DNA from: a virus
Strand: one strand, 5' to 3'
Length of the DNA stretch: 64,000 nt
IMG/VR virus record: IMGVR_UViG_3300021197_001995
Coordinates: 64,001 to 128,000 of that record
The translations under genes and the position numbers were made by a program. The notes beneath the pieces are model-generated. The model saw nothing but the letters and a program-made list of their open reading frames with translations. It was not told where the DNA came from and did no database searches. Shown here in pieces: positions 4,352 through 13,094 of this stretch; the stretch's first letter is position 1; each line of letters begins with the position of its first letter.

Positions 4352-6361
4352 ATGGCTAAAAAAAGTAAAAATAACACAAGAAACCCACAGAGCGTACTTT
4401 TCAGGCGCCTGACTAAATTATTATCAGGGCCCCTGACGCAATATCGCACACAGAACAGTCACAGGCTTAGGCGTATAGACCTAGACAAATACGCAAATAA
4501 ATTCACATCTGCTTCTGGTAGAGATTTTAAAAAAACGGCTTACAATCCGTATGATAATCTACAAGCGCAGTACATGACGTCACAGCAAAGAGCAGAACGC
4601 TACGTAGACTTTGATCAAATGGAATATACACCAGAGATCGCTTCTGCCCTGGACATCTATGCTGACGAAATGACCACATACTCAGCTTTAACGCCGATGA
4701 TGTCAGTTGATTGCGACAACCAAGAGATAAAAGCCATCCTAGAGTCTTTATATACTAACGTTTTAAATGTTGAGCACAACATGTTTTCTTGGTGTAGAAC
4801 AATGTGCAAGTACGGTGACTACTTCTTGTACTTGGACATCGATGACCAAATGGGAGTAACGTCCGTCATCGGCTTGCCAACAAGAGAGGTCGAAAGACTA
4901 GAAGGTGAAGATCAGGGGAACCCAAACTACGTACAATACCAATGGAACTCCGCGGGAATAACCCTAGAGAACTGGCAAGTTGGTCACTTTCGCATCTTAG
5001 GTCAGGACAAATACAACCCTTATGGCACATCTGTTCTTGAGCCTGCTAGAAGGATCTGGCGACAACTGACGTTACTTGAGGACGCTATGATGGCCTATAG
5101 AATTGTAAGGTCACCGGAGAGAAGAGCCTTTTATGTTGATGTAGGTAATATACCTCCGCAGGATGTGGAGCAATACATGCAGAAAGTCATGACCACAATG
5201 AAAAGAAACCAAGTGGTGGACTCTTCTACTGGTCGTGTAGATCTAAGGTACAACCCTCTTTCAGTCGAAGAAGATTACTTCATACCCGTCAGAGGAAACA
5301 GCTCCACAAAGATTGAATCTGTCTCGGGAGGTAAATATACAGGCGACATAGAAGACGTCAAATATCTTAGAGACAAGCTATTCTCTGCACTCAAGGTACC
5401 AACCGCTTACATTTCGTCCGACAAGGATGGTGCAATGGAAGATAAGACTACTTTGGCACAGAAGGACGTCCGCTTCGCGAGAACAATACAGAGGCTCCAA
5501 AGATCGGTGTTATCTGAGATAGAGAAGATTGGAATCATACACCTGTATACACTTGGATACAGGGACGAAGACTTGGTATCATTCTCGTGCACGCTCAATA
5601 ATCCTTCTAAGATTGCCGAGATGCAAGAGTTAGAGTATTGGAAAACTAAGTTTGATATTGTTGGTTCTGCAACTGAAGGTTTCTTTTCAAAGCAGTGGCT
5701 AGCCAAAACTCTTTTCGGAATGTCTGATGAGGATTTTATTCGTAACAGAAGAGAGATGTTCTATGACAAGCGCTTCGAAGCAGCGCTGGAGTCAGCCGGC
5801 GAAGCCGAACAGGCAGAGGTTACTGCGGGTCTCAATGCGGGCCCCGACGTCGGAGGAGAGCTCCCCGGCGACATTGGAGAGCCAGGTGGAGTGGGCACAG
5901 TGGGCGAAGAACCAGAGTTGGGAGCAGGCCCCGAAGAAGCGGCCCCAGACCTAGGAGGCGCGCCCCCCGGAGATACACCCGCGCCAGCCGCGGCTGAAGA
6001 AGGGGGTCTCTTGGCGGCCCCACCTGGTAAAAGAGAAGATGATAAAGGTAGAACAACCACTGCCAAGTCTCACGGGTGGTATGAGCCACGCACAACCAAG
6101 GCCGGAGGAGATAGAAGGAAATCTTCAGGCCCTAGAAAGAAGAACATGTCCCGAGCAGCCTCACCGGAAACAGGTACACCTCGTAAATTGTACCCCGGAT
6201 ACAGTGATCTAACTGGCTTAGCGAAAGGAACGAGTATATATGAATCTGAAGCAACTAATTATAAAGTGGAAGAGAGAAAGATCCTTAAAGAACAGAAAGA
6301 GTTAAACGCTCTTTTCAAAAGCCTAAAAGCAAGGGAGAACAAGAATGAGACTGAAGCATAA
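4352..6361 (+). CDS. Portal protein (T4 gp20-like) with acidic Gly/Pro-rich C-terminal tail
   Basis: LLEDAMMAYRIVRSPERRAFYVDVGN, EEDYFIPVRG, DIEDVKYLRDKLFSALKVP. Confidence 0.96.
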   Translation: MAKKSKNNTRNPQSVLFRRLTKLLSGPLTQYRTQNSHRLRRIDLDKYANKFTSASGRDFKKTAYNPYDNLQAQYMTSQQRAERYVDFDQMEYTPEIASALDIYADEMTTYSALTPMMSVDCDNQEIKAILESLYTNVLNVEHNMFSWCRTMCKYGDYFLYLDIDDQMGVTSVIGLPTREVERLEGEDQGNPNYVQYQWNSAGITLENWQVGHFRILGQDKYNPYGTSVLEPARRIWRQLTLLEDAMMAYRIVRSPERRAFYVDVGNIPPQDVEQYMQKVMTTMKRNQVVDSSTGRVDLRYNPLSVEEDYFIPVRGNSSTKIESVSGGKYTGDIEDVKYLRDKLFSALKVPTAYISSDKDGAMEDKTTLAQKDVRFARTIQRLQRSVLSEIEKIGIIHLYTLGYRDEDLVSFSCTLNNPSKIAEMQELEYWKTKFDIVGSATEGFFSKQWLAKTLFGMSDEDFIRNRREMFYDKRFEAALESAGEAEQAEVTAGLNAGPDVGGELPGDIGEPGGVGTVGEEPELGAGPEEAAPDLGGAPPGDTPAPAAAEEGGLLAAPPGKREDDKGRTTTAKSHGWYEPRTTKAGGDRRKSSGPRKKNMSRAASPETGTPRKLYPGYSDLTGLAKGTSIYESEATNYKVEERKILKEQKELNALFKSLKARENKNETEA

Positions 6362-7175: not shown

Positions 7176-7707
7176 AGCAAAAATTGAAATGCACCCTAGA
7201 GTGAAGATAAAGGCCCGACGAACCTTGGATGGTAACATCCTTATCTTGGATCACGAAGATATCGACATTGTGTACCTCGAAGAGAAGAGCAAGTGCGTGG
7301 CTTTCCCCAAGGAGAGAATGAGTGACAAGGTGTACGCTGCACAGGATAGGATGTTTTCATTCCTCGCGAGAAAGGGTATAATTACACACTCCAGCATCAA
7401 AGGCGGAAACGTTTATGGATCTATGGAGGCAGAGGTTATGGAGTCTAAGATTCCAGGCATAGATGCGACTCAGGCATTTTTGTACACTTTGAATGAATAC
7501 CTCACAGGGGAGAAGCCATACTTCAAGACTGCAGCCGAATTTGATGATGACCGGTTGAACTCTCTATTGAGACCTTCCGATGAGGACTCAACTGAACTTG
7601 GCGACGTGCCACAATCGGATAGAAAGGGATCGATGCACAAGCAAATCGGACCATACGGCTTTCAATATAACTACTCGCTTATTCGAGAAGATGAAAGTGC
7701 GGACTAA
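7165..7707 (+). CDS. Hypothetical protein
   Basis: 180 aa ORF translationally coupled to both neighbours. Confidence 0.75.
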   Translation: MTIKAKIEMHPRVKIKARRTLDGNILILDHEDIDIVYLEEKSKCVAFPKERMSDKVYAAQDRMFSFLARKGIITHSSIKGGNVYGSMEAEVMESKIPGIDATQAFLYTLNEYLTGEKPYFKTAAEFDDDRLNSLLRPSDEDSTELGDVPQSDRKGSMHKQIGPYGFQYNYSLIREDESAD

Positions 7708-8045
7708 TGAACTTTATTTGGTTTTGTCTTATTTCGTATGGCCTTACGCAACTCCTCGTATACGGAAAGATATTCGACCCAATCCGCCCAAAGTCCGGAA
7801 AGTTAGGGCAATTGCTTAGGTGCCCAATGTGCACTGGCTTTTGGGTAGGTTTATTTTTATGGTTCGTAAAGGACTACACTCAACTAATTACTTTTGACGA
7901 TTCTTTTGTCACAGGTCTCCTATTGGGATCAGCCGGCTCAGCCGCGGCCTATGTAGGGACCATGGTTTTCTGCGACGATGGAATAAAAGTTTACAAACTG
8001 GTCAACATAGAAAGGAGTGAGATAAATGCGAATAACGAGCACTAA
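7707..8045 (+). CDS. Membrane protein with CxxC (DUF1360-like)
   Basis: TM segments and LLRCPMCTGFWVG motif. Confidence 0.7.
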   Translation: MNFIWFCLISYGLTQLLVYGKIFDPIRPKSGKLGQLLRCPMCTGFWVGLFLWFVKDYTQLITFDDSFVTGLLLGSAGSAAAYVGTMVFCDDGIKVYKLVNIERSEINANNEH

Positions 8046-8088
8046 ATGGAGATTACCCCGGGTCCGCCGGTGTTGCAATGGAAAATAG
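8026..8088 (+). CDS. 20 aa basic micro-ORF MRITSTKWRLPRVRRCCNGK
   Basis: AAGGAG SD at 8012-8017, 8 nt before ATG; below the ORF-track size cut-off. Confidence 0.55.
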   Translation: MRITSTKWRLPRVRRCCNGK

Positions 8089-8093
8089 ACGAC

Positions 8094-8108
8094 GCGGGTG
8101 ACCCCCGC
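8094..8108 (+). promoter_or_regulatory. GC-rich RNA hairpin GCGGG-UGACC-CCCGC between the micro-ORF and the protease start
   Basis: Direct complementarity. Confidence 0.5.
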
Positions 8109-8121
8109 TTTGAGGAATAAA

Positions 8122-8730
8122 ATGAAATTACTAAGAGAATATTACGAACTATGTGACGGCGGCGTCTGCCAAGACCTTCTAACAGAAGACGAAAAGAGGC
8201 GAGTGGCGGAAGGAAAGGTTACAATTCTATCCGGAGTTATGCAAATGTCAGAAACTCAAAACGGAAACGGAAGAGTTTATCCGCATGCCATTTTAGAAAG
8301 AGAAGTACAAAGCTACATGAACATGGTGGAATCCAGAAGAGCCCTCGGGGAGCTTGATCATCCAGATACTAGTGTTGTGAACTTGTCCAACGCATCTCAT
8401 TTGGTTACAAAGATTTGGATGGAAGACAACAAGTGCATGGGTAAAATTGAAGTGCTAAACACCCCATCCGGTAGAGTTCTTCAAGAGCTAGTTAATGCCG
8501 GCGTCAAGCTTGGCATCTCTTCTAGAGGTCTAGGCAGTGTGACAGAATCTAACGGAGTTACAATGGTAGAGGAAGACTTCCAGTTGATTTGTTTCGACAT
8601 GGTCTCCGATCCATCAACCCCGGGTGCGTTTATGATGACAGAGGCCAAACAACCATCTAACATCTTTACGCCGGCAGACAAGATCAATCGAGCATTGACG
8701 AGCTTTTTATACAAGTTTGGAGAAAAATGA
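8122..8730 (+). CDS. Prohead core protease (T4 gp21-like)
   Basis: NGNGRVYP, ALGELDHP, ASHL, LGISSRGLGS, FDMVSDPSTPGAF; GAGG SD before ATG 8122. Confidence 0.96.
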   Translation: MKLLREYYELCDGGVCQDLLTEDEKRRVAEGKVTILSGVMQMSETQNGNGRVYPHAILEREVQSYMNMVESRRALGELDHPDTSVVNLSNASHLVTKIWMEDNKCMGKIEVLNTPSGRVLQELVNAGVKLGISSRGLGSVTESNGVTMVEEDFQLICFDMVSDPSTPGAFMMTEAKQPSNIFTPADKINRALTSFLYKFGEK

Positions 8731-9156: not shown

Positions 9157-9393
9157 ATGGGTAGAAGAACACCAGTACACGTGGAAGTGGTAATACACGA
9201 CCAAAGACAAGTTGAAAGAATGATCAAGAAATTCACTAGAAAGTGCAAGAAATCAGGATTGTTTGATGAGTTAAAAGAAAGAAGATACTTCAAGAAGAAG
9301 TCACTCAAGATGAAAGAGAAGAGAGAAAGAAAGAAAAAGCTTTCTCAGAAGTCTACACAAGACTATAAAGACAAATTTGAGAATTTTAAATAG
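9157..9393 (+). CDS. rpsU: Phage-encoded ribosomal protein bS21
   Basis: VERMIKKFTRKCKKSGLFDELKERRYFKKKS matches the bS21 pattern. Confidence 0.85.
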   Translation: MGRRTPVHVEVVIHDQRQVERMIKKFTRKCKKSGLFDELKERRYFKKKSLKMKEKRERKKKLSQKSTQDYKDKFENFK

Positions 9394-13053: not shown

Positions 13054-13094
13054 AAAGCCCTCGGTCATTAATTTGGTCGGGGGTTTCGTTTTTT
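13054..13094 (+). terminator. Rho-independent terminator after the capsid gene
   Basis: AAAGCCCTCGGTCA...TGGTCGGGGGTTT stem with T tract. Confidence 0.75.

Follow-up and report, generated by a model that had tools for sequence, protein, structure and literature searches.

The stretch analysed here, hereafter the window, comprises 64,000 nucleotides (nt) (positions 64,001 to 128,000 of IMG/VR record IMGVR_UViG_3300021197_001995) and belongs to a record of 159 kb, ~88% complete, from an uncultured T4-like phage. Its head module runs in the order portal, two unknown open reading frames (ORFs), DUF1360-like ORF, prohead protease, acidic scaffold-like protein and gp23-type capsid protein. Between the DUF1360-like gene and the protease lies a 20-codon ORF (the micro-ORF) that encodes a Cys-Cys peptide and is followed by a small GC hairpin. 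A sequence-only reading of the window had described a DUF1360-like CPMC protein overlapping this ORF, a strong Shine-Dalgarno (SD) sequence ahead of it, its RRCCNGK-TAG end, and the hairpin five nt after the TAG; each of these elements is present in the sequence, at the following positions:

4352-6361: portal gene (Portal_T4).
7707-8045, plus strand: gene for a DUF1360-like three-helix membrane protein of 112 amino acids (aa; Pfam PF07098), with Cys codons at 7821-7823 and 7830-7832 and the CPMC codons at 7821-7832.
8011-8017, plus strand: SD of the micro-ORF, AAAGGAG, 8 nt upstream of the ATG at 8026.
8026-8088, plus strand: micro-ORF, 20 codons plus TAG (8086-8088), encoding a basic peptide with the 13-residue core W-x-L-x-x-V-R-R-C-C-x-G-K.
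8071-8073 (TGT) and 8074-8076 (TGC), plus strand: Cys codons of the micro-ORF, followed by N-G-K and TAG.
8086-8093, plus strand: stop TAG and a fixed-length 5-nt spacer (8089-8093).
8094-8108, plus strand: RNA hairpin with a G+C stem of 5 base pairs (bp), formed by GCGGG (8094-8098), loop TGACC (8099-8103) and CCCGC (8104-8108).
8112-8124, plus strand: protease ribosome-binding site (RBS) GAGGA (8112-8116), starting 3 nt past the hairpin, and protease ATG (8122-8124).
8122-8730, plus strand: prohead core serine protease (Peptidase_S77, T4 gp21-like; Pfam PF03420, E 1.7e-29; PHROG 207).

The start of the micro-ORF overlaps the end of the DUF1360-like gene by 20 nt, and the hairpin starts 17 nt past the second Cys codon and 5 nt past the stop. 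The micro-ORF ATG (8026) and the protease ATG (8122) lie in a common frame (both 1 mod 3) with the TAG as the sole stop between them, a relation that had been reported correctly for this window.

Comparison with relatives showed that the 20-codon ORF is a genuine, strongly conserved protein-coding gene missed by annotation. Relatives were gathered through IMG/VR protein-anchored searches with the protease and the DUF1360-like protein and then with a degenerate DNA pattern for the peptide core, giving a final census of 418 fetched loci. The core [KR]W.[LI][QR]PV..CC.G[SK] was found in 395 of them, as 297 distinct DNA versions encoding 77 distinct 13-residue cores; among the core-pattern matches listed (from a total of at least 120), 119 of 120 were true family members. 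In the 13-codon core of 200 distinct contexts, the information at codon positions 1, 2 and 3 was 1.43, 1.46 and 0.54 bits respectively, the signature of purifying selection on a protein. Moreover, an SD-like 4-mer stood 4-15 nt ahead of an in-frame start in 195 of 200 copies, and the start was ATG in 181. It is this comparison with relatives, rather than the window by itself, that argues for more than a chance ORF. A second small ORF in another frame (8046-8120 on the plus strand, 24 codons) begins where TAAATG overlaps the stop of the DUF1360-like gene and leaves 1 nt before the protease ATG. It is probably not coding, since the wobble pattern of the relatives fits the micro-ORF frame.

The conserved stretch is the C-terminal 13 residues, [KR]-W-x-[LI]-[QR]-P-V-[RA]-x-C-C-x-G-[SK]; the N-terminus is variable in sequence and length, so that whole peptides range from 16 to ~45 aa. 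Within the core, the vicinal CC.G. was swapped for C..GC in 32 of the 297 versions and the Trp was Arg in 15, while the second Cys was never lost. That the second Cys relocates yet is always kept suggests selection on thiol chemistry and not on codons. The family has no Pfam or PHROG model; a called-protein search of a 5.8-billion-sequence database with a 44-aa long form returned no homologue, and tblastn against INPHARED (~50,000 cultured phage records) returned nothing for the peptide and nothing for the DUF1360-like protein. One locus, L283 (IMGVR_UViG_3300023116_002944, minus strand, ~396-430), holds the micro-ORF twice in tandem: in the first copy TGA stands at the second Cys codon and there is no hairpin, and the second copy is apparently intact, the printed stretch ending just past its Cys pair. 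Since an intact copy follows the TGA copy, which lacks the hairpin, the simplest reading of the TGA copy is a pseudogene.

The partner gene upstream belongs to a family without named members. Against Pfam DUF1360 (PF07098) the ORF at 7707-8045 scored 27.1 bits (cut-off 21, E 4e-6), with only profile positions 52-74, the CxxC helix, aligned; a genome-wide Pfam scan agreed on the DUF1360 assignment. Its 306 homologues are all unnamed and all from marine metagenomes. The CxxC (C-P-M-C-T-G in the window, then x-G-F-W) was found in 120 of the 120 close homologues listed and in ~135 of 150 distant representatives. The AlphaFold2 model of the window protein, built on a shallow alignment, was poor (predicted local distance difference test (pLDDT) 68), while that of a natural fusion protein (P0130, described below), built on a deeper alignment, reached pLDDT >90 for the membrane part and placed helices at residues 2-19, 36-49 and 63-87. 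A Foldseek search of the DUF1360 model against the PDB gave no match with E <0.6. By the positive-inside rule (a basic loop lies ahead of the CxxC), the CxxC would sit at the cytoplasmic end of helix 2, and a signal-less basic peptide would share that side of the membrane.

Among the protease-anchored loci, those extending 1.5 kb or more upstream number 105, and all 105 hold both the DUF1360-like gene and the micro-ORF; 20 of them failed the strict motif and carried C..GC or Trp-to-Arg type variants instead. Among 203 unique contexts, a DUF1360 homologue ended at most 150 nt upstream of the micro-ORF in 189, and the protease started at most 150 nt downstream in 146. Another gene stood between the micro-ORF and the protease in ~42 contexts and between the DUF1360-like gene and the micro-ORF in 9; in the ~42 loci with such a gene ahead of the protease, the micro-ORF and the hairpin stay beside the DUF1360-like gene.

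A profile search over 1.84 billion protein representatives recovered three apparent fusions of the DUF1360-like protein and the micro-protein (P0130, P0152 and P0209). P0130 was confirmed in DNA (locus L289, 2501-2848, IMGVR_UViG_3300028844_002433): compared with four close relatives, 43 nt are deleted, which brings the ORFs together in frame and removes the membrane protein's C-terminal helix together with the SD, the start codon and the variable N-terminus of the micro-ORF. The other two are known from protein sequence alone: P0152 runs straight into the micro-ORF Met, and P0209 looks frameshifted. As evidence for a partnership of the two proteins, these fusions are supportive but weak.

On the downstream side, an insertion in the N-terminal part of the protease holds a C-x4-C pair (L-C-D-G-G-V-C, residues 11-16; Cys codons 8152-8154 and 8167-8169). 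The insertion, as L-C-[ED]-G-G-[VI]-C, occurs in 191 of 214 distinct proteases from module-bearing loci; cyanophage P-TIM40 and Flavobacterium phage immuto, both of which are without the module, have proteases that lack it. Three adjacent genes (DUF1360-like, micro-ORF and protease) thereby each hold a conserved Cys pair. Farther along, still within the head operon, a 78-aa very basic ORF (9157-9393, plus strand) that resembles ribosomal protein bS21 is flanked by the protease-adjacent ORF and the scaffold gene.

The hairpin starts exactly 5 nt past the stop position in 181 of the 297 versions, as it does in the window, and 103 distinct hairpin-bearing junctions align gap-free with the 5-nt spacing identical throughout. 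RNAalifold on 83 sequences found only the 5-bp stem conserved (consensus -8.8 kcal/mol) and no conserved alternative pairing. The closing pair over the 103 sequences was GC in 88, GU in 8, AU in 7 and unpaired in none, the next pair showed one C-G to G-C flip, and distant members carried compensatory variants of the inner pairs (GCAGG/CCTGC and GCCGG/CCGGC). The presence of G-U intermediates without A-C mismatches fits an RNA structure on the sense strand. Otherwise there was no variation in the inner three G-C pairs or in the T that opens the loop, third-codon positions of the overlapping frame included, which argues for constraint beyond coding alone; the constraint on the hairpin looks sequence-specific or dual. 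The hairpin occurs equally after TAG, TAA, TGA and sense codons, and where a gene is inserted ahead of the protease (L014 and similar loci) it remains with the micro-ORF. Two hairpin subfamilies can be distinguished, one with spacer N-T-G-A-N and a loop ending in C, the other with spacer C-T-C-R-N and a loop ending in G; the latter could form a U-G closing pair or a GGGCG/CGCCC stem in a shifted register, and both subfamilies track subfamilies of the peptide.

Several known classes of element were compared with this hairpin and set aside. As an intrinsic (rho-independent) terminator it lacks the U-tract in 89 of 103 cases: a T-run (at least 4 T within 9 nt) follows in only 14, an SD-like 4-mer of the next gene lies within 11 nt past the stem in 76 of the 103, and the site is absent from the list of a terminator scan of the window. 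A leader-peptide attenuator was rejected because the pairing suggested by the minimum-free-energy fold of the window is not conserved and the tandem Cys codons change to C..GC in 32 versions. A repeated regulatory element was rejected on copy number, the hairpin being single-copy in the window and in the 159-kb genome. A peptide-hairpin pair of the lambda N/boxB kind, prompted by the dimensions of the element (15 nt, 5-bp stem, 5-nt loop), is disfavoured by the hairpin-less members, which keep the peptide. A search of 7600-8300 with Rfam covariance models (E up to 10) gave no relevant match, and the local fold of the window is not unusual (z = -1.0). Elsewhere in the window, directly past the major capsid gene, a strong terminator-like hairpin (13055-13086, plus strand; 13 pairs and a T-run) has the canonical form, unlike the micro-ORF hairpin.

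The junction between the micro-ORF and the next gene takes three forms. In the first, that of the window, the core is followed by a stop, exactly 5 nt and the hairpin. In the second, the stop comes right after the core and 2 nt ahead of the next ATG (TAG-CT-ATG), with the K-G codons doubling as the SD of the next gene. In the third, a sense codon stands at the place of the canonical stop (85 of 297 versions) and the ORF continues through the hairpin as x-x-R-V-x-P-A; in several examples its end overlaps the next start as ATGA or TAATG. At the canonical position, stops were TAG in 83, TAA in 31 and TGA in 39 versions (54%, 20% and 25%), compared with 17%, 60% and 24% respectively for the long ORFs of the same loci. 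In addition, C followed the canonical stop at +4 in 112 of 153 versions (73%), against 9% for the long ORFs. Of the bases at +4, C gives the weakest context for termination in E. coli, a rule that may not carry over to the hosts of the phages studied here. ARAGORN on the 159-kb phage genome found transfer RNAs (tRNAs) for Lys-UUU, Gly-UCC, Pro-UGG and Arg-UCU clustered at 145776-146386 and one for Met-CAU apart from them at 1400-1474, and no suppressor tRNA, selenocysteine tRNA (tRNA-Sec) or transfer-messenger RNA. Junctions inspected by eye for -1/+1 frameshifting offered a possible A-AAA slip in Lys-type members and nothing slippery among the Ser-type junctions inspected. A short readthrough extension, or coupling of the upstream-ORF (uORF) kind, could still operate at this site.

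The sequence-only reading had offered two interpretations of this arrangement. One was a thiol/selenol redox micro-module whose relatives would carry TGA, for selenocysteine (Sec), at a Cys position, with the hairpin as a Sec insertion sequence (SECIS). Its thiol part remains plausible, given the near-invariant CxxC, the Cys pair of the peptide, their co-occurrence in 105 of 105 loci and the fusion, but its selenol part does not hold. Although a GC hairpin with GU near its loop lies downstream of the Cys codons and 25% of relatives with a canonical stop have TGA there, both Cys codons are TGT or TGC in every one of more than 290 versions. IMG/VR was scanned twice for TGA in place of one or the other Cys codon; this gave four matches, of which three were chance and the fourth was the hairpin-less first copy of the L283 tandem. 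In bacteria, a SECIS is a stem-loop of ~40 nt that follows the UGA immediately and whose apical loop is conserved. The hairpin here has 15 nt, follows the stop and not a Cys codon, is found at sites occupied by all three stops and by sense codons, and stands in a phage without its own tRNA-Sec. The selenocysteine explanation is thus effectively refuted.

The other interpretation was readthrough of the TAG to give an N-terminally extended prohead protease, which we regard as very improbable. The window and about half of the short-plus-hairpin relatives do have a common frame without another stop. However, the frame offset between micro-ORF and protease was 0, 1 and 2 in 29, 20 and 12 short-plus-hairpin versions respectively, several of the in-frame cases contain further stops, another gene intervenes in ~42 loci, and the protease has its own SD and ATG. 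Of the features whose conservation the sequence-only reading had proposed to examine across relatives, the micro-ORF and the hairpin, the latter with covariation, proved conserved, but the frame shared with the protease did not.

The explanation that we favour, with moderate confidence, is that the micro-protein (~16-45 residues, basic, with an obligatory Cys pair) acts together with the upstream DUF1360-like membrane protein, the genes being translated as a coupled chain with a hairpin that the ribosome senses. This model draws on several lines of evidence: i) the coding signature, the SD-led starts, and the 297 versions and 77 cores; ii) the 105 of 105 co-occurrence and the near-invariant CxxC; iii) the Cys pair that is kept when moved; iv) the in-frame fusions P0130 and P0152 and the L283 tandem duplicate; and v) the module-specific Cys pair of the protease. 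In this model the peptide most likely docks on the cytoplasmic face of the DUF1360-like protein, where its two thiols would join the CxxC knuckle with which helix 2 begins in a shared site of the metal (Zn-type) or dithiol kind. T4 proheads nucleate on the inner membrane with the help of a viral chaperone (PMC9958956). The module probably acts in membrane-associated prohead initiation, and it may engage the Cys pair of the protease N-terminus.

At the level of translation, the favoured model holds that the three genes would be read as a coupled chain in which the DUF1360 stop overlaps the micro-ORF start, and the micro-ORF ends 2 nt ahead of the next ATG, overlapping it, or 5 nt ahead of a hairpin that abuts the next RBS. 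Such coupling is suggested by TAG-CT-ATG in the hairpin-less forms and by the ATGA or TAATG overlaps in the long forms. From ribosome geometry, the 5-nt spacing would place the 5' arm of the hairpin inside the mRNA channel of a ribosome that has the stop codon in its A site. On this view the hairpin would serve the junction as an element sensed by the ribosome, tuning coupling, pausing or the stability of the transcript, and would be neither a SECIS nor a standard terminator.

Parts of this picture have counterparts in known systems. The closest in appearance is the bypass cassette of T4 gene 60, likewise from a T4-type phage, with a basic nascent peptide containing aromatic-K-L-Q...V-R-R, a Gly codon near the end, a stop and a compact G+C hairpin. 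In the T4 record the gp60 signal reads K-K-Y-K-L-Q-N-N-V-R-R-S-I-K-S-S, and the gp60 residues reported as important (Y16, Q19, V22 and R24) align with W, Q, V and R of the micro-ORF. The position-specific scoring matrix (PSSM) of the family gave gp60 7.9 bits at residue 14, a score that one random 46-aa window in 20000 reached and none of 5000 shuffles did, whereas true members scored 38-59 bits. The systems also differ: the peptide signal lies 0-5 residues from the stop here and ~16-32 residues in gp60, the take-off stem-loop of gene 60 holds the stop whereas the micro-ORF hairpin starts 5 nt past it, and the family invariants W, P, C, C and G are not common to gp60. A hop of the gene 60 kind was rejected, since no matching landing codon was seen before the next ATG in the few Ser-type junctions inspected by eye, and the likeness of the peptides is kept only as a lead. 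Coupled junctions of the ATGA/TAATG type, as in RNA phages and ribosomal-protein operons, also place a stop within the ribosome footprint of the next start or next to SD-adjacent structure. Unlike those, the micro-ORF hairpin sequesters neither the SD nor the start, and its sequence, not just its pairing, is nearly invariant across very divergent phages.

On the side of chemistry, flavoprotein disulfide reductases end in C-terminal dithiol tails (...CC.G in MerA, ...SCCS in insect thioredoxin reductase (TrxR) and ...GCUG in mammalian TrxR). These tails resemble the micro-peptide in being short and flexible, with Cys-Cys near Gly at the C-terminus, and in cooperating with a second pair (CxxC or CxxxxC) elsewhere. 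By contrast, the micro-peptide is a separate 20-aa product, its partner is a small membrane protein with no flavin/NAD domain, no Sec variant exists, some variants use C..GC, and in the long forms the pair lies 8-25 residues inward of the C-terminus. Among the small ORF families of the GMSC catalogue (PMC11364881) are likewise conserved ORFs of <50 codons with their own SD and start, missed by gene callers and functionally unannotated. The micro-ORF differs from them in its obligate DUF1360-like partner, fixed place in a T4-type head operon and invariant Cys pair and, in two thirds of its members, in a hairpin of conserved sequence placed exactly 5 nt from the stop position. Finally, T4 gp40, a chaperone of membrane-bound portal initiation (PMC9958956), is a small phage factor of membrane-associated, T4-type prohead nucleation, and the module described here lies between portal and protease; the likeness is positional and functional only.

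A number of observations weigh against the partnership of peptide and membrane protein. One protease clade (23 of 214) is without the Cys pair and has N-L-D-Y-S-D-D-L instead. The AlphaFold2 model of P0130 gives the peptide part a pLDDT of only 54-62, and the membrane topology is that predicted by the positive-inside rule only. Each fusion is a singleton on one contig, with 1 of 303 DUF1360 tails fused in the fetched loci, and the fusions may be sporadic mutants or assembly errors. Furthermore, the whole 20-aa peptide would fit inside the ribosomal exit tunnel at termination, and a tunnel-sized peptide, C-terminal conservation, an atypical stop context and an invariant hairpin spacing are equally expected of a cis-acting nascent-peptide regulator.

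The main competitor is accordingly a leader that acts in cis: the nascent peptide in the tunnel, a weak stop and a hairpin at the ribosome entrance would slow or stall the ribosome and so set translation of the downstream gene, usually the protease, and the released peptide would have no function. Much at the junction fits such a leader, namely conservation confined to the 13 C-terminal residues of peptides as short as 16 aa, a stop-to-hairpin distance that does not vary over 103 distinct sequences, enrichment of TAG and of C at +4, stops 2 nt from or overlapping the next start, a hairpin abutting the next SD in 76 of 103 cases, and the partial likeness to the T4 gene 60 nascent-peptide signal (K-Y-K-L-Q-N-N-V-R-R, 7.9 bits with the family PSSM). 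On the other hand, the residues that the family never gives up (W, P, two Cys and G) are not those it has in common with gp60, and the gp60 score is far from the 38-59 bits of true members; the Cys pair is kept despite changed spacing, which a tunnel-contact motif would not obviously need; the micro-ORF stays with the DUF1360-like gene when apart from the protease, as well as co-occurring with it in all 105 loci; the canonical stop is dispensable, being a sense codon in 85 of 297 versions; and no alternative RNA pairing is conserved. We consider this leader possible but doubtful. A bolder variant, in which the micro-ORF, the weak stop and the hairpin at fixed distance form a ribosome-reprogramming cassette that is gene 60-like in principle and gates the protease by pausing or recoding, with the Cys pair as a thiol or metal sensor, appears unlikely.

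A leaky stop is a different proposal, in which low-level readthrough, helped by the weak context and the hairpin, would make a C-terminally extended isoform (x-x-R-V-x-P-A...), the sense-codon relatives making only the long form. It would account for the 85 of 297 versions in which a sense codon occupies the stop position and the unchanged frame runs on through the hairpin, many of these codons being one mutation from a stop; for the conserved stop-C-T context; and for the near absence of covariation among the inner stem pairs, which would be expected of a hairpin that is constrained as coding sequence as well. Yet TAA, normally the tightest stop, is used in 20%, the extension past the hairpin is conserved in neither length nor sequence, the hairpin-less short forms have no usable extension, and the phage encodes no suppressor tRNA. 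Moreover, the invariant third-codon positions of the Arg and Pro codons in the stem point to constraint at the level of RNA and not of protein. We therefore rate the leaky stop as quite unlikely.

The module described here is an invariant but wholly unannotated part of the operon for head assembly in a lineage of uncultured marine T4-like phages that is both large and abundant. It illustrates how conserved core genes of phages escape gene callers that set a floor of 30 codons. Its junction is a natural experiment in which one peptide is found with a stop and a hairpin, with a stop abutting the next start, or with the hairpin read through, and this variety offers a tractable system for how ribosomes, stop context and small hairpins set the coupling of cistrons. 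T4 handles the membrane-tied step of prohead formation with unrelated proteins. If the peptide and the membrane protein do share a thiol or metal site, possibly together with the protease N-terminus, the module would represent a new way to tie prohead nucleation or protease control to the membrane.

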